This document shows, in pieces, positions 2,581 to 60,306 of a DNA stretch of 64,000 bases (position 1 is the stretch's first letter; the number at the start of each line of letters is the position of its first letter). The stretch is taken from NCBI GenBank assembly GCA_964252035.1, contig OZ176204.1. One strand, written 5' to 3'. A model generated the notes under the pieces. It was not told the DNA's origin and did not search any database. It worked only from the letters and a program-made list of their open reading frames with translations. The translations under genes and the position numbers were made by a program. This DNA is from Podarcis erhardii. Lineage: Eukaryota.

Positions 2581-3010
2581 GTGTGCATATACAACCTTGG
2601 TGAGATGCAACGTGTTTCATGTCTTTAATTGGCATTCTCTTCTGTGAAAATGAGCTATATATTGTTTTTATCAATCTATGGTTTTAGTAATAAACAGTAT
2701 TCATTTTTTGTAGCAGACCATTCACGATTATCACTTGCAGTGCATGCAGTTATACTTAGAAAAGTGTTTCATATGCAACTGTTTTTTATTTGTATGTTTA
2801 GCTATGCAGATTGTCATTTGCAGGTGCATTACAGTTAGGTTTGCACACATGGTTCTACTGCCTTGGATAAGGAGGCAAGACTCCAGAATACTTCAGAGTG
2901 TTGAAATGGTGCTAAACTCCCTTATCTGCTTGTTCTCACCTCAAAAAGGAACTAGAGCAAGAGGGCAGGGGTTCTAATGTCACACAGGCTTCACTTTAAA
3001 TCTCGTAAAC

Positions 3011-3118
3011 TAGAGATGGGGAACTTGTTGAATTCCAGCTCCCATCAGCCCCAGCCACCATGGCCAATGGTCAGGGATGGTTGAAGCTGTAGTTCAGCAA
3101 CATCTGGAGGGTCACTGA
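3011..3118. mobile_element. Palindromic hAT-like MITE, right end cut by the YR retrotransposon
   Basis: agagatggggaac...ctcccatcagccccagcc...ggtcagggatgg...gtagttcagcaacatctggagggtcac matches a common lizard MITE; the right TIR is replaced by the YR element terminus. Confidence 0.55.
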
Positions 3119-3217
3119 TTGCGTGGACAGGTGGAGTCCCCAGATCCCGAGTGGTCCCCCCCGTCATGTGGAATAACGACTCTAGACAACGTGCTATGGG
3201 ATTAAATTGGCCACAAC

Positions 3218-3223
3218 TTTATT
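3218..3223 (-). terminator. Polyadenylation signal of the YR retrotransposon
   Basis: tttatt on + = AATAAA on minus (context AATAAAGTTGTGGCC), about 345 nt after the SGNH stop and about 100 nt before the element end. Confidence 0.55.
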
Positions 3224-3567
3224 AAATTTCAAATGTGGGTAGACCTTGGCTCAGGCATTGGGCGTTCTCCCTCCCTAGTCCCCAGCCGGGGACCTAGGGA
3301 GCATCAGGGTTATCCAGTGTGTGTGGGGGGGATGGGCCGGCTCTGGAGAACATATGTTCAAGCAGAGATAGCCGCCCCCATTACGCCGCCACAGGGGAGA
3401 GCAATGACGACCTTTCGGCGTACGGCCAAAGCCTCCCTTCAAAAACCCCTTTAACGGGGAACCCTGGTATCACCGCCGCAAAGAGGAAGATGGACTAAAG
3501 GATTCCGCCCAAGGCCTGATACCGCCACCCGAGACCGCAAAGATTGCAGTCTCGCCGCCAAGACTAC

Positions 3568-4146
3568 CTACATCTGAAAATCCCCTTTGCCATCCTCCAA
3601 CCAGTCAATCAGGCCATGCCTGATGTCGCTCAGCCAACGCTCGTTACCACGGTCCGATAGGTGCACGCCATCGGGCCGAAATAGCTCCTTCATGTAGACT
3701 TTAATGTTGGGGTGTTTTGCGACCCGACCTCCAATGCGAGTGATTGCAGAGCGCACTGCCCTATTGATTTTTTCAATGGTGTAATTAAGTCTAGTGGGTT
3801 TGATGTTGCCACGCCAATGCAAGCGTGGCAGAAGTTCGGACCAGAAAATTGTGATGTTGGGGTGAGCGGCATGTACGCTTTCCAGGTCCGTGATCGCTGT
3901 TTTAATCAGAATTATGCTTTTTTGCACGATCAAGTCATTTTCGCCAAGGTGGAGCACAACCGCGTTTGGCGGATGGTGGAACGCAAGTTCGTGACACAAC
4001 CGAGGGAGCAGGGCATCCCATCGCATTCCACGTTGGCCGAACCAGGAAATGGAGATCTTTGGCTGCAGACCCAGATGTTCTCCGCCTGGACCAGTAGTGG
4101 CATGGATGGCCGCCCAATGCACTATGCTGTGGCCGAAGATCCACAC
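3568..4146 (-). CDS. SGNH/GDSL-family hydrolase of the YR retrotransposon (no ATG; track start is GTG)
   Basis: All four SGNH blocks in order: IFGHS (Ser), GQRG (Gly), LHLGEND (Asn), DGVH (Asp/His); uninterrupted 192 codons. Confidence 0.88.
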   Translation of the reverse strand: MWIFGHSIVHWAAIHATTGPGGEHLGLQPKISISWFGQRGMRWDALLPRLCHELAFHHPPNAVVLHLGENDLIVQKSIILIKTAITDLESVHAAHPNITIFWSELLPRLHWRGNIKPTRLNYTIEKINRAVRSAITRIGGRVAKHPNIKVYMKELFRPDGVHLSDRGNERWLSDIRHGLIDWLEDGKGDFQM

Positions 4147-4176
4147 ACGTTTGGGGGTTGAGCCTGAAAGAAAGGA

Positions 4177-5085
4177 TTATATGGTATCTGTCAGTGTCTG
4201 CTGGTTGTTTCGAATATAGCCTTTGAAGGCAGCTGAACGCCACCGCCCCATTGTTTTTATGTGTTCTGCCGGGAGGCCGCTTGCAGCTGCCAAGGTTGCT
4301 GCACCAATACGAAATGAATGCCCAGAGAATTGTGCCGGGTCGCCTCCACAAGCATGGATGGCCTTACGCAATATTGAGACAAATTGGCAACGGGTCATGG
4401 GGCGGCCTGATGCATGAATGAGGAGGGGGCCTGGTCCCGGAGGACGTACCTTCAGGAATTTCCGTGTGTCCGCGACAGGGCATGGTCCAGTGTGTGGGGA
4501 GGAGGCTAGACTTAGCGTGGAACCCCTACCTAGTTGATCGGTTTTGGAGGCTTGGATTTTGACTTGTATCATGCGTCTGTCAAGGTTGATATCAGCCAGA
4601 GACAAGCCCCTGCGATGAGGTGACAATGTGCCCCCTATGCACTCCCCGATACGGAGTGCACCAAAGAAGGCCAGGGAGAAGGCTGCCCTGAAGAGCCTGA
4701 CCTCATAGTTGGACCAGCAAATTCTGGGGAGCGCATCCCAGATCAGCTGGAGGATTTCTATGGTTACTGGCCTCCTCTTATCTGGAATGGGCGGGTGGGA
4801 GCGACGCCACCCTGCAATAAGCTTCCTTACGTGGAAAGTGTTACAGGGGTCTGGGAGCCAAAAACAGTTGCTTAAGTAGGAGATAGCGGCCTTGTGCAGG
4901 CTGATGGTTTTAAGGGCCATGCCCCTACGCTTTAGGTGAACCAAATATTTTAGAACATCAGACTCCTTAGCTGTACGCCTGCGACGTAAGCCAAACTTAT
5001 CTCTGAACCCCTCGAATTGGGACCATGCTCTGGTGTAGGACCGCAGCGTTGATGGTGCAAGGGTGCTCAGAACTCCTGCTGTCAC
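4177..5085 (-). CDS. Tyrosine recombinase (integrase) of the retrotransposon
   Basis: Full catalytic set R (ALRIGE), K (SKTDQ), HxxR (GHSFRIG), W (GRW), Y (GYIR); N-terminal LAPSTLRSY typical of DIRS YRs; GTG start overlaps the RT-RH TGA (GTGA at 5085-5082). Confidence 0.92.
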   Translation of the reverse strand: MTAGVLSTLAPSTLRSYTRAWSQFEGFRDKFGLRRRRTAKESDVLKYLVHLKRRGMALKTISLHKAAISYLSNCFWLPDPCNTFHVRKLIAGWRRSHPPIPDKRRPVTIEILQLIWDALPRICWSNYEVRLFRAAFSLAFFGALRIGECIGGTLSPHRRGLSLADINLDRRMIQVKIQASKTDQLGRGSTLSLASSPHTGPCPVADTRKFLKVRPPGPGPLLIHASGRPMTRCQFVSILRKAIHACGGDPAQFSGHSFRIGAATLAAASGLPAEHIKTMGRWRSAAFKGYIRNNQQTLTDTI

Positions 5086-6074
5086 TTCTCCCGTCCAATT
5101 TCCCAGAGGTCCTCCAGAAAGGCTTCTGGGAGTTGATCGGCCTCGGGTGCTAGGTCGCGAAAGCGCTCCATCTGAAAGCGAGACAGGGCATCTGCGATGT
5201 CGTTATTGAGGCCCGGGATGAACCACGCAGAAAAGGAGATGTTACTTTTCAGACATTCCAGCACGAAGAGATGGAGCACGCGAATTACCCTGTTGGATTT
5301 TGCGGATTGCTTCGCAATGATTCTTACCACCGCCTGGTTGTCCGACCAGAAGCACACCCTGGTGTCCTTGAGGAGGTGCCCCCAAACACGGAGAGCCACT
5401 AGGATTGGGAAGAACTCAAGGAAAATTACATCACGTGTAATGCCCTCCTCGTGCCAAGATGTCGGCCAAGGCTGCGTGCACCAGTGACCCCTGAAGTAGA
5501 CGCCGAAGCCAAAGCAACCAGAGGCGTCAGAGTGCACCTGTAGCTGTTCCTTCGGCAGCAGCCAATCTTGCCAGAAGGACACCCCATTGTAACTTTCCAG
5601 GAAGGTTAGCCATATTTTGAGGTCTTCCCTTATGGTGTGGGTGACCCTGATGTGGTGATGGGGGGCAACACCGCCAGCCGTGAGACAGGCTAGGCGTGCG
5701 CAAAAGGCGCGACCGGGCGAGATAACCCTGCATGCAAAGTTGAGGTGTCCTAAGAGTGTCTGGACCTGACGCAACGTGGTCTTTTTCTGGGCCATCATGT
5801 TGGTTATCAATTCCCTCAACGTGGCGAGTTTGGCCAGGGGCAGGCGAGAGGTTTGGCTGACAGAATCCAGTTCAATACCCAGATATGAGATGACGGTGGT
5901 TGGACCTTCGGTCTTGTCCGCTGCCAACGGGATGCCCAATTCAGCTGCCAGCTGAATGAAGCATGCCAGCGCCCTAGCGCACGCGTCTGAGCCCGCTGGC
6001 TGGACGAAAAAGTAGTCATCTAGGTAATGGGTAATGCGGTGGGACCCTGACCTGCGTTTCATGGCCCATTCCAC
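5082..6074 (-). CDS. Reverse transcriptase (C-terminal half) plus RNase H, 5'-truncated
   Basis: YLDD motif, KTEGP..YLGIELDS, LGHLNFACRVI, RNase H DAS...E...SDN...NDIADALSR; homology (FSTFVEW) stops at about 6087 against non-coding sequence. Confidence 0.85.
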   Translation of the reverse strand: MEWAMKRRSGSHRITHYLDDYFFVQPAGSDACARALACFIQLAAELGIPLAADKTEGPTTVISYLGIELDSVSQTSRLPLAKLATLRELITNMMAQKKTTLRQVQTLLGHLNFACRVISPGRAFCARLACLTAGGVAPHHHIRVTHTIREDLKIWLTFLESYNGVSFWQDWLLPKEQLQVHSDASGCFGFGVYFRGHWCTQPWPTSWHEEGITRDVIFLEFFPILVALRVWGHLLKDTRVCFWSDNQAVVRIIAKQSAKSNRVIRVLHLFVLECLKSNISFSAWFIPGLNNDIADALSRFQMERFRDLAPEADQLPEAFLEDLWEIGREK

Positions 6075-6363
6075 GAATGTGCTGAAGCCAAGTGAGGATT
6101 AACAATTAAGATCCACCCTCTATTGTGTGGGCAGGTAATCCCTCCCCTTACCTGGCCTGGTTTCCCTGGCAACGCTTTCCCCAGGTGGGATTGGACAACT
6201 CACTGGGGTAGGCGGGGACCTCCAGGTATCCCACCTGAGGGAAGGCAAAGCCTATGCTGATGGGGCCACTCCAGATCCAGGGCTGCACGCGTCCACGCAA
6301 AAGGCGCCCCCCGTTTTAAGTGGGGAGCGGTCATTCCCTGGCCATGCCCTAAACTGTGATATA

Positions 6364-6572
6364 CAGTGGTACCTCTGGTTACGAACTTAATTCATTCTGG
6401 AGGTCTGTTCTTAAGCTGAAACTGTTCTTATCCGGAGGCGTACTTTCACTAATGGGGCCTCTGGCATGTGATTTCTGTTTGCATCCTGGGGCAAAGTTCG
6501 CAACCAGGAGCAGCGGAGCTCGTAACCTGAAGCATTCATAACCAGAAGCATTCGTAACCAGAGGTACCATTG
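6364..6572. mobile_element. Tc1/mariner (Tigger/pogo-like) MITE
   Basis: TIRs cagtggtacctctggttacgaa ... ttcgtaaccagaggtaccattg; TA on both sides; same family as 1656-1884. Confidence 0.85.
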
Positions 6573-6679
6573 TACTTCCATCAAAGGGTCACAGCATATT
6601 TTCTGCCCTGCTCCCACATTTATTCTACCTGTTTGCTGCTCAGTCAAAATAAATCCCCCATAAGTTACATAAAACAATA

Positions 6680-8600
6680 TAAGATCCAGACCTTTAAAAC
6701 TGTCCAGTCTATCAAATAACTAATAGTACGTAGCTCCTAACATTAGGGGGAAAGCTTGCTTAAACAATAACATTTTAAGAAAGCATCTAAAACGTAATAC
6801 AGAATGAGCTTACTTAACATTGTTTGGGAGGGAGTTTCATAGCTTAGATGCTGATACACTGAGTGCTCTGCTCCTGGTAGGGAGTCAGGAGTGGACACTA
6901 TGTGGCATTGTTAATAGTTCTTTTTCTTTTGATGATTGTTGTGATTGAAAAGGAATATATGGTGCAAGATAGTCCCTCAGGTTGTTCAGGGCATTGTATA
7001 CTAATAACAGAACCTTAAATTTGTCTCAGTGACGTATTAGCAGGTTTTTCAGCATAGGTTACACAGTATATGCTGTTGATAATCTGTATTCTGTCAACAG
7101 ATGAATTGCCACATTCTGTGCTAGCTGAAGCTTCTGGACCAATATTAAAAGCAGTCCTATACAGAGCACATTGTAGTAACCCATTAACAAATTTATCAGT
7201 ACATGAATCACTGTAGCTAAGCTATTTTACCAATCTAAGTTGGTAAAAGACACTCCTAGTCACAGAAGGCACCTGAACCTCAGGCAACAGAGATGAATCT
7301 AGGAACACTTCAGTCTGCTCTTTCAGATGGAGTGCAACCTCATCCAAAACAGGCAACTGGCATGGGAACCTCCTTCTACAAAGAATTCAAGCTCAGTTTA
7401 ATGTCCCTCATCCTGCTCATCGCTGCACCCGGGCACCGGTACAGGGCTTGCTTAGCCACTGCTGATTCAGATGTTATGGAGGACCCCCAAATCTCTAATG
7501 GTCACTCGCAGTGCCTTCTTTTGGTGTTATAGCATTGGAGAGAACAGGGAGCCCTGTGGAAGCCCATATCATAAATGCGAAGGGGCCCAAGGTACACTTT
7601 CTCTAAATGCTACTCTCTGCAGATAGGATTGGAATCACTGAGACACAGGTCACATCCATACTATGCATTTAAAGTATTATTATACTACTCAAAATAATCC
7701 TGGAACAGTAGTTTTAAGCGTGCTGGGAATCAGAACTCTGTGAGGGTTCTCCTAACAACTCCTAGTGCCCTCAACCAACAACAGTTCCCAGGATTCTTTG
7801 GGGAAACCTATGGCTGTTGAAATAGTATAAGAGCGTTTTAAATGTATAGTGTGGATGTGACCACACTGCCACCAATACCCAGTCTACAGAGTTGGTCCAA
7901 GAGGATACCATGTTTGATGGTATCAAGAGCTGCAGGGACATAAAGAAGAAACAAAGTCATACTCCCTTGATCTTACTCTCAATATAGGGTATCATCAGGG
8001 CACCCAAGGCTGATTCAGTTCTAAAACTAGCCTTGAAATCAGACTCAAACTCAGATTCAAACTCAAACTGATTGAGTCAGCTCAATCAGTATAGTCTAAT
8101 AATGCTTGCAGTTGCCCCAACATGACTGTCTCAAGCAATTTCCCTGGAAAGTTAGGCATTTGGAACCAGTGGATCCAGAGTGGGCTTCATATTGGGTCAC
8201 AATTTTATTAACAAGATAATGTAATTGACGGGGGAAGGGCTAAGGTATAGGGCTAGATGCCAATGTAAAATAGATTTCAAGTAATGGAAATGCCCACAAA
8301 AGAGTGGAAGCCCTTTCCTGTAACAGACCATGTGGAGAAGACCATGGCTGGAGAAGATTTTATGTGGAATTGTTTCTTCTTGTGCTAGAACCAATGTAAT
8401 GATCAAGTCTGGAGAAATAGTATCTTTCAAATATTCCCAAGCGAAAGTGTTGAATGCTGACCTGTCCTTACCATTCTCTCCTGTTGATTCCTCGTGCCAC
8501 AGCCATTCATTACCCCTGGGATTTCCCTTTCTGAGTTACATTTTTGCATGGGAGAGGAGCAGAGAAGCTGGGGTAGTGCAGGGGTCAGACCCATGGTTGG
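6680..8600 (-). mobile_element. Degraded L2/CR1-clade LINE, RT region, interrupted by a MITE
   Basis: Minus-strand remnants KPTLDP (~8170), TESALGAL..DQGSMTL..ALDTIKHGILLDQL.RLGIGG (~7870-8020), GLPQGSLFSPML (~7540) and YYNVL.IGL...VQKLQLAQNVA (~7110-7190); many stops and frameshifts; ends approximate. Confidence 0.72.
7648..7862. mobile_element. Palindromic MITE, probably PIF/Harbinger-like
   Basis: TIRs ggtcacatccatactatgcatttaaa / tttaaatgtatagtgtggatgtgacc; GG...CC ends; 3-bp direct repeat aca on both sides. Confidence 0.7.
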
Positions 8601-46763: not shown

Positions 46764-46960
46764 GTTACAGATAGGTAGCCGTGTTGGTCTGCCATAGTCA
46801 AAACAAAAAAATTCCTTCCAGTAGCACCTTAAAGACCAACTAAGTCAGTTCTTGGTATGAGCTTTCGTGTGCATGCACACTTCTGCACACGAAAGCTCAT
46901 ACCAAGAACTGACTTAGTTGGTCTTTAAGGTGCTACTGGAAGGAATTTTTTTGTTTTGAC
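46764..46960. mobile_element. Penelope pLTR fold-back (inverted) insertion
   Basis: pLTR 3' end followed by its inverted copy; perfect 79-bp arms (46795-46873, 46884-46962) with a 10-nt loop; 13-bp TSD taagattgccaca at 46751-46763 and 46961-46973. Confidence 0.9.
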
Positions 46961-48960
46961 TAAGATTGCCACATTTCTGTGTCTCTGTGTCACTCTGTTT
47001 CTTTCTCTCTTTAGTGGATAGCCTTCCAGTATATTGAAGGCATGTGTGTGCAGTAAGTAGTCTTTAGCTATGTTAAGACTTTTCTTTACTGGTGTGCCAT
47101 TTTTAACGTTCTAAAACACTGAAACCAGTATCCTTCTAAGCTTCCAAAAGATGGCACCTGCTATATTTGAATTTTTACCTTTGCATTAAATATCATCATA
47201 GATATTCATGTTTATAGCACACATATGCAAGCACTACTTCACATTTCAGACATTCTTGGATGTAAGGCCATATCTTCCTTTGGGCAGCAATATAGGTTGA
47301 AGACACTTTTGTGCATGAATGTCTAATAATTTTAAAAGGGACATGTGAATAAATCTTGTGAATCTCTACTGGAGAAACAATGTGGCCATATTTGGTATGC
47401 TTGCAAGAAATAAAATGTTTCCGTTTCGTTTTCCAGCAGTGACCATTGTGGCCCGACTGTCATGCAGGATCTCCTCAGGCTGAGGAGAGCTGCCTGTCTC
47501 TGCACACTTTACTGGATCTCATATTTTTAATGCTGAATCACTTATTTCTAACACTGTGCAGAGGCAATGTATAAACAAAAGGAAACATGCATAATCCCTA
47601 AACCAAGCTTAGGTTCCATGTGGAGTGTTGGAATATTGCAGTAGCTCTAGCTGCACCCAAACAATCCTAGAGATGGTCCTGTGGACCAGCCCGAGACTTG
47701 CGGGTATAGAGCGGTATACAAATGTAATAAATAATAATTATGTGGGGAGGAAACAGCTGGACTAGGCATAATTTTGTAGTTCCTTCATCTCGACTATATT
47801 TTGCTACCGAGTTTTCAGAGATCTTTGATGTATACACAGTATACAGTGTCTTCATATAGATGTTAGGGCCTTTTCAAAGTGAATTTCTCACATGACATAA
47901 ACCAGAACATACTGGATCTTTTGCCTTGACCAGTGCATTTCAGTAAGAAAAACTATAAACCTTAGACCGGTATGTTGTGTAGATTTATTTGATAGTTACG
48001 TAAATACTATTCTTTGAAAAAGAAGGAAGACATATCCATGAGCACGACAGATTTAATGATTTTACTTTTGGAGATCAAAAGTCAGAAATGCCATGCAATC
48101 TCCAAAAATGAGAAGTGTCTGAAGAACAGTCTTAGCTGGAATAGTAGAAATGTAACGATTCCTTTTTCTCCTGATCAGCACCACAATTGGCAGTTAACTT
48201 TAGATTACATTCATTAATAATCTCACACATTTCCTCCCTAATGCGCCTTCTCTATTCTAATCTCTCACAGTGGAAATTACAGTCTCTTCAGATCTGTTAG
48301 TTCTCCATAACGCTGAAGGGCTTGGCTTGAAACTCTAAGTTTGGTTGTTTGGTTGCCAATGGCTTGATTCTGTTAGCCAAGGCATTCTCTTGACTGACCT
48401 TACCATGGGCATAGAGCCTGTCAAAATGTCACCTCCAATACCATCAGGCCAAAACCCTATCTCAGGCCAGTTGTTGCTAATTGTCAGTCTGTGTCAGTCA
48501 TTCATGCTATTCAAATACCTAGTCATTCTATTCAAATATCTAGTCTTGACAAACTAGATTTTGTCACTTATGACAATGAGTTAAACCCCCTACCTCATCA
48601 CCACCTCCCCATCCTGACACAGGCACCTAGCATAATTGTGCAATTAGAAAAATGTTAGGTTAAATAACATAACTTTTTCCTATTTATACTAATGACAGCT
48701 AATGGTTCTCCCCCCCCCTCATTTTTAAAAAAAGACTCCTTAACTTCTGTATTTTTTTAAAATAACACATTTTCTCCTACACATTTCATTGTTCTTTTTA
48801 ATAGGATCTGCCAGGAAAATTCCTGAGCAAAAGCTCGAGATGTTCAACGTTATTATCTCATTGTCTATCCCTCGTGTTACAGCCTTACTGTGACTTCCTA
48901 ACTAATCAGCTATTTCAACTCTTGTTCCATAAGCTTTATGTCTGAGCATAATTAAATGAG

Positions 48961-60135: not shown

Positions 60136-60306
60136 GTTACAGATAGGTAGCCGTGTTGGTCTGCCATAGTCAAAACAAAACAATTTCCTTCCAGTAGCAC
60201 CTTAAAGACCAACTAAGTCAGTTCTTGGTATGAGCTTTCGTGTGCATGCACACGAAAGCTCATACCAAGAACTGACTTAGTTGGTCTTTAAGGTGCTACT
60301 GGAAGG
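60136..60306. mobile_element. Penelope pLTR fold-back insertion with a loop-less 120-bp perfect palindrome
   Basis: Palindrome 60187-60306 centred on gtgtgca|tgcacac; 12-bp TSD aggttctattag at 60125-60136 and 60304-60315. Confidence 0.9.

Follow-up and report, generated by a model that had tools for sequence, protein, structure and literature searches.

On its minus strand, the window, a stretch of 64,000 nucleotides from Podarcis erhardii, carries a copy of a tyrosine recombinase (YR) retrotransposon of the Ngaro type with two working 3' splice sites, one before the YR frame and one before the frame of an SGNH hydrolase. With a probability of roughly four in five, we propose that a single phase-1 donor, located inside gag, is spliced to either of these sites to yield a GagN-YR and a GagN-SGNH protein. 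A first-pass annotation had noticed both acceptors, and this observation is confirmed.

The features of the window copy are as follows:

3118..6335, minus strand: internally deleted Ngaro-type YR retrotransposon copy, 97-99% identical (blastn) to the full-length copy L032
6082..6335, minus strand: split direct repeat A1, 98% to A1/A2 of L032
6082..6087, minus strand: junction of the deletion between A1 and the reverse transcriptase (RT), about 4.5 kb lost; short sequence common to both sides
5082..6087, minus strand: 3' part of pol (end of RT, RNase H); its stop TGA overlaps a YR-frame GTG at 5085
5172..5190, minus strand: YR splice acceptor (pyrimidine tract and CAG), within the RNase H codons A-L-S-R-F-Q
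4177..5171, minus strand: YR exon, 330 open codons 3' of the acceptor, catalytic motifs ALRIGE, HSFRIGA, GRW and GYIR
4958..4964, minus strand: cryptic donor GGA/GT in YR, joined to the SGNH acceptor by 3-4 reads (position transferred from L033)
4164..4194, minus strand: SGNH splice acceptor, with a branch-like CTGAC (4194-4190), a pyrimidine tract and CAG
3568..4163, minus strand: SGNH hydrolase exon, 197 open codons, motifs GHS, GEND and DGVH
3118..3527, minus strand: split direct repeat B1, 99% to B1/B2 of L032

The copy thus reads A1, 3' RT/RNase H, YR, SGNH, B1, and is missing gag with its donor, the 5' part of pol, A2 and B2. The A1-to-RT junction is not a splice junction. In many copies (L001, L013-L030, L042-L050), A1 abuts internal points at scattered positions, with a short shared sequence at the join. 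A deletion in RT (L032 4943-5483) recurs in L013, L014, L015 and L029, so that deleted forms were themselves copied.

The element family is young, and a DNA search of its own genome, in which 40 of 2,268 candidates were scored, gave 95 matches. At full length, copies measure about 8.5 kb and are organized as A1, leader, gag, pol, YR, SGNH, B1, A2 and B2, with ORFs of 519 (gag), 580 (pol), 341 (YR) and 202 (SGNH) codons. The ORFs of L032 overlap (gag 2980-4539, pol 4406-6148, YR 6028-7053), and its split repeats are 100% identical over 263 nt for A1/A2 and 99.8% over 409 nt for B1/B2. Pfam matches of the gag, RT, RNase H and YR ORFs fall below the curated cut-offs, as does that of the SGNH exon to PF13472 (E 4.5e-6); among solved structures, PDB 4C1B is the nearest to the SGNH domain (E 6.3e-6), and the closest named protein to the element comes from Podarcis muralis (94%). 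Pol ends 29 codons past the RNase H motif, and a Pfam scan of the element gave no match to a methyltransferase after RNase H. An SGNH ORF lies 3' of YR in all 42 loci of the sister-family set described below. All together, the ORFs, the split repeats, the SGNH domain and the lack of a methyltransferase place the window element and its full-length relatives within the Ngaro-like plan. The Xenopus Ngaro-like elements DIRS-53_XT and DIRS-54_XT also carry gag, RT/RNase H, YR and SGNH in overlapping ORFs, with the A1 ... B1 A2 B2 arrangement, and the function of their SGNH is given as unproven (PMC9210276). The parts of that paper available to us do not address how YR and SGNH are expressed, whereas here the donor, the acceptors, their phase and the use of the acceptors in RNA were identified.

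In the literature searched, two questions are open: by what means DIRS-order elements translate their start-less, overlapping YR frame, and which function the Ngaro hydrolase has. As stated in the first-pass annotation, the YR frame is open from a TAA (5205-5203), the first start-like codon of SGNH is a GTG (4146), and neither frame has an N-terminal ATG; full-length copies lack one likewise, a point on which the earlier reading could have failed. Its position for the first YR methionine, about residue 53, was wrong: this residue is 95 counted from the stop, or 56 from the GTG at 5085. The late first methionine of YR is found in 11 of the 12 copies with listed frames (residue 95, or 79 in shortened frames), and that of SGNH lies at residue 51 in 11 of 12, the twelfth being frameshifted. 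The ATG found directly 3' of the YR acceptor belongs to the RNase H frame, not to YR. In the sister-family set, an in-frame ATG is present by residue 10 of the YR core in 9 of 40 copies, and several database YRs are annotated from a methionine near the core start; an internal ATG is a real alternative for YR in some families, not in that of the window element.

Both acceptors were found where they had been proposed: the YR acceptor AG is at 5173-5172 and its exon starts at 5171, the SGNH acceptor AG is at 4165-4164 and its exon starts at 4163, both exons are in phase 1, and the branch-point-like CTGAC stands upstream of the SGNH site at 4194-4190. CTTTCAG occurs only twice in the 3,186-nt element strand, at these two acceptors, and YAGs of equal pyrimidine richness number 18 and 10 among the 317 AGs of one full-length copy. 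Judged by sequence alone, both sites are good but not unique, and the case for them therefore rests on conservation and on reads. Within the family, 27 of 34 examined copies have the YR site, which ends in TTTCAG in all 27, and a YAG is kept at the SGNH acceptor in 32 of 33; since these copies are young, this says little on selection.

We compared sister families, using 40 loci picked from lists of 132 and 134 matches plus two loci of the own family; the set forms 21 clusters at 80% DNA identity and is about 50% identical in DNA to the window family in the YR. Of the 40 parsed copies, 39 keep the YR acceptor in phase 1 (in this parse one copy had no pol end, one was unparsed, one was frameshifted, and L096 was adjusted by one codon). 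The RNase H codons that encode it are skewed towards synonyms that favour splicing: Gln is CAG in 21/21 clusters (background 0.60), Arg is CGY in 19/19 (0.31), Ser is TCY in 21/21 (0.53) and Ala is GCY in 18/21 (0.56), in binomial tests with one copy per cluster that count related families as independent and whose p-values ignore relatedness. All 21 clusters have a YR frame without stops between the acceptor and the pol stop, as do 35 of 243 same-frame control windows taken upstream, and a YR-frame stop lies 16-31 nt upstream of the exon start in 39 of 40 copies. The SGNH acceptor of the sister families mostly lies in non-coding spacer 3' of the YR stop. Its YAG is exactly 20 nt before a conserved Trp in 20 of 21 clusters and 14 nt before it in the remaining one, always in phase 1, and a branch-like motif accompanies it in 19 of 21 clusters versus 6.7 in shuffles, with a motif set that was widened after the sequences had been viewed. 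Conservation beyond coding constraint, suggested earlier as a check, is thus found for both acceptors and their phase across 21 families, through synonymous-site skew for YR and through a fixed position, mostly in spacer, for SGNH.

We mapped 4 of 24 listed runs (X22, X20, X5 and X1) to the copy L033, whose YR and SGNH exons begin at 6030 and 7038, respectively. The reads come from another, related organism and are mostly 90-99% alike. In X22, a raw-read run from organism B (about 12% read, 308 reads mapped), sense-strand depth begins at the YR acceptor, where 18 reads carry foreign sequence up to 6027; the same join is present in a contig of X5, a contig run. The foreign 5' sequence matches four places in this genome, and the two inspected are an exon end, with CAG followed by GT. 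The offset of 3 nt (6027 against 6030) arises because CAG is common to the host exon end and the acceptor, and this shared CAG, together with the GT at the exon end, indicates a GT-AG splice exactly onto the YR acceptor, at 5171 in the window. Two joints (3 and 4 reads, 7 together) land on the SGNH acceptor at 7038. Moreover, one X5 contig begins at 7038, the first base of the SGNH exon, and another ends 30 nt past it, as expected at a branch. The 5' sides of both SGNH joints lie inside YR; one is GGA/GT and the other reads AT in the copies of this genome. Both the YR and the SGNH sites work as acceptors in RNA, and with a YAG, a pyrimidine tract, a branch site and RNA use they agree with U2-type 3' splice sites.

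The first-pass annotation had predicted junctions at 5171 and 4163 from a shared donor; reads hit both acceptors, but none comes from a shared donor. Indeed, no read or contig of X22, X20, X5 or X1 joins the element's own gag donor to either acceptor, and the donors observed are a host exon and cryptic YR sites only. Gag coverage is almost nil in X22, X20 and X5. The contigs of X1 (organism A; taken as RNA by guess) cover most of the element and run unbroken across the donor and both acceptors; rare forms drop out of such contigs, which may also hold intronic or DNA sequence, yet the observation weighs against splicing from the gag donor.

The trapped host exon (L051:1417-1534, L052, L053, L054) is part of a tandem gene cluster, and its translation resembles what we take to be an acid lipase exon. 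By eye it ends in phase 1, so that in the trapped RNA it would be read in frame into YR. A 100-kb region of this gene cluster in the present genome contained no copy of the element family that could represent the trapping insertion, with one weak pol-like match (22%).

The shared donor had been placed in a gag or leader exon lost from the window copy. This part of the proposal is borne out by a phase-matched donor inside gag, within the segment deleted here, and not by any read from it to an acceptor. We examined 42 copies (8 without gag, 2 without the anchor), using the gag YW motif to anchor a 63-nt window with 2-7 GT sites. The best of these is a phase-1 CAG/GTR donor, 41-50 nt before this motif, in 30 of 32 copies and in 15 of 17 clusters. 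The donor is kept while the next residue varies (T, S, A, R). Of 368 Gly codons, 24 in all show its codon pattern, and 15 of these 24 are at the donor site. In L032 it follows gag codon 213, and it reads TCAG/GTAGGT in 11 of the 11 family copies with the site. Splicing from this position, 213 codons inside gag, would make the products Gag-fusion proteins.

Such fusions appear among RefSeq models, which are annotations and may be predictions. P0151 (Podarcis muralis LOC114597557), which belongs to the family of the window element (94%), switches from Gag to YR exactly at the donor and acceptor, with 13 of 15 residues matching Gag before the donor and 14 of 15 matching YR after the acceptor. P0153 (P. 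raffonei LOC128413387) has the same switch (12/15 and 10/15 as compared with L068). In P0121 (Zootoca LOC118082278 X2), a Gag-like N-terminus passes into SGNH at most one codon away from the site, and P0154 shares the acceptor and has its donor 16 codons downstream. In two Paroedura models the switch, judged by eye, lies 25 residues ahead of the conserved Trp, which is its place in L032 too. Gag-to-YR and Gag-to-SGNH splicing would explain these odd lizard gene models. Another model, P0122, a Zootoca vomeronasal receptor, ends in an SGNH piece 74% like that of the window element's family, possibly through exon trapping or as a mis-joined model.

Spliced copies were absent from the genome: at 0 of 28 places with the YR exon start does an alignment break off, all continuing through the intron side, and the deletion junctions in 50 loci are scattered, with none at the donor or an acceptor. 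This fits packaging of unspliced RNA only and equally fits an absence of splicing. One could argue that the motifs are chance or coding by-products and that the RNA joins reflect accidental exon trapping without a role for the element, given that the RNA donors are host or cryptic only, that the X1 contigs are unspliced only and that equally pyrimidine-rich YAGs occur elsewhere in the element. We find this hardly credible against the synonymous-site constraint at the YR acceptor, the fixed position of the SGNH acceptor in spacer DNA and the conserved, phase-matched gag donor.

The acceptors could also be real and yet have a main partner other than the gag donor: a non-coding leader exon or an internal promoter would feed them, and translation would begin at internal or near-cognate starts. 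By eye, A1 and the leader contain donor-like sites (L032 589, 703 and 2670), an acceptor stands immediately ahead of the gag ATG, and the 9 of 40 copies with a methionine near the YR core start would be in line with such an arrangement. However, a non-coding leader needs no fixed phase, yet the donor and both acceptors keep phase 1; an ATG falls between the SGNH acceptor and the SGNH core in only 1 of 21 families; and the first methionine in the window family would remove the YR N-terminal domain and the catalytic Ser of SGNH. We consider this explanation unlikely and favour the gag donor. A leader mini-exon (L032 ATG 2631, donor 2670, phase 1, by eye) was set aside for the gag donor. The leader segment L032:2590-2980 further shows, by eye, acceptor-like sites near 2825 and at 2979, directly before the gag frame, besides the donor-like site at 2670, so that gag itself may follow a spliced leader; the segment also carries what we take to be a YY1-like motif. 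Upstream in the 5' leader (L032:1069-2345) are GC-rich tandem repeats of about 170 nt, whose number varies between copies.

Alternatively, ribosomes could reach YR through stop-restart at the pol stop (GTGA) or a frameshift out of pol, and could read through the YR stop to make SGNH; the splice motifs would then be by-products. The window family lends itself to such a reading, as the YR-frame GTG overlaps the pol TGA and YR and SGNH share one frame, with a single TAA (4179-4177) between them in the window copy. Across the 21 families, though, the pol stop is overlapped by ATG in 1, GTG in 5, TTG in 2 and a non-start codon in 13, just 12 have YR and SGNH in one frame, and the reads use both acceptors. 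As a general mechanism, stop-restart and readthrough are largely refuted, and as an account of these motifs we hold them very unlikely. We thus retain splicing from gag as the preferred reading for both enzymes.

A different route is suggested for Pol. Just 3' of the Gag zinc knuckle, CCC-UUU-CGN is found in 28 of 33 copies and 15 of 18 families, with pol in the +1 frame; the +1 frame is open into pol in 24 of the 28 UUU_CGN copies (background 0.55 for TTT and 0.48 for CGN). The window element's family has two UUU_CG sites (L032:4404-4445), with homologous sites in L066-L104. Pol is likely made through a predicted +1 frameshift at CCC-UUU-CGN. In influenza PA-X, a +1 frameshift occurs at UCC UUU CGU (PMC4317690, as far as the text was available), so that both systems have UUU then CG in the zero frame and the next ORF in +1; here, unlike in PA-X, the motif is CCC-UUU-CGN, lies at a retrotransposon gag-pol overlap, and frameshifting is predicted only. 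A third acceptor, for pol, was rejected as a general feature: it is in phase 1 in L032 (4555-4556), but a YAG is found in only 20 of 33 copies.

In full-length copies, the single gag donor would be joined alternatively to the YR or the SGNH acceptor, in frame in both cases, so that 213 Gag codons would be followed by 330 YR or 197 SGNH codons; in L032 the junctions would run from 3646 to 6059 or 7067. Unspliced RNA would yield Gag and, by the predicted +1 frameshift, Gag-Pol, and would be the only form copied back into the genome. The Gag segment upstream of the donor contains 23% Arg and 23% Ser, and this common N-terminus may target both enzymes to the particle of the element or to the nucleus. 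One transcript would thus have four fates: Gag, Gag-Pol, GagN-YR and GagN-SGNH. That this four-product scheme, with one donor, two acceptors and a frameshift, holds for animal Ngaro elements, and that their strong acceptors also trap host exons in frame, seems to us somewhat more probable than its opposite. If so, inserted copies would be efficient exon traps, able to add a tyrosine recombinase in frame to host proteins, and the acceptors would offer host genes a route to capture a recombinase domain. The window copy has lost the donor, so that its acceptors could do no more than capture donors from elsewhere. The proposal gives exact junctions; if it is true, the YR and SGNH proteins are Gag fusions, which changes their annotation and the targets for biochemical expression.

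In retroviruses, unspliced RNA serves as genome and as gag-pol message, and a spliced subgenomic RNA serves the 3' gene, env. The scheme proposed here is alike in combining unspliced RNA with a spliced message for 3' genes, but the donor lies 213 codons inside gag, there are two alternative acceptors, and the products would be Gag fusions of a recombinase and an esterase, with no envelope protein. The term env-like, used in the first-pass annotation, therefore holds as an analogy of a spliced 3' gene and not for the products: SGNH is a lipase-fold esterase without a strongly hydrophobic segment, and a simple scan for a signal peptide or transmembrane anchor found none, with maximal 19-residue hydropathies of 1.24 (SGNH), 1.28 (YR) and 0.36 (Gag N-terminus). 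In Ty1/Copia elements, according to the parts of the report available, conserved alternative splicing produces a subgenomic gag RNA and sets protein ratios (PMC5580714); splicing there yields Gag alone, whereas here it would yield the integrating enzyme and an esterase. The esterase of the ZfL2-1 LINE ORF1p (PDB 4C1B) binds phospholipids and, as proposed here, is attached to an ORF1/Gag-type protein; in the sections available to us, this fusion is encoded in one ORF (PMC3905857), whereas here it would arise by splicing. By analogy, one may speculate on a membrane role for the Ngaro SGNH. In our literature search, whose scope did not extend to the founding Goodwin/Poulter/Butler reviews and Repbase, we found no description of splicing for the YR or SGNH of Ngaro/DIRS elements; the portions available of PMC7192593, PMC9210276, PMC4495291, PMC9341512, PMC8547959 and PMC6681497 do not mention it.

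A large share of the listed YR matches lies on one 30-Mb contig (C19), which is the expectation for a repeat-rich chromosome. Elsewhere in the window, a short repeat family forms perfect inverted repeats of 79 and 60 nt, at 46795-46962 and 60187-60306.
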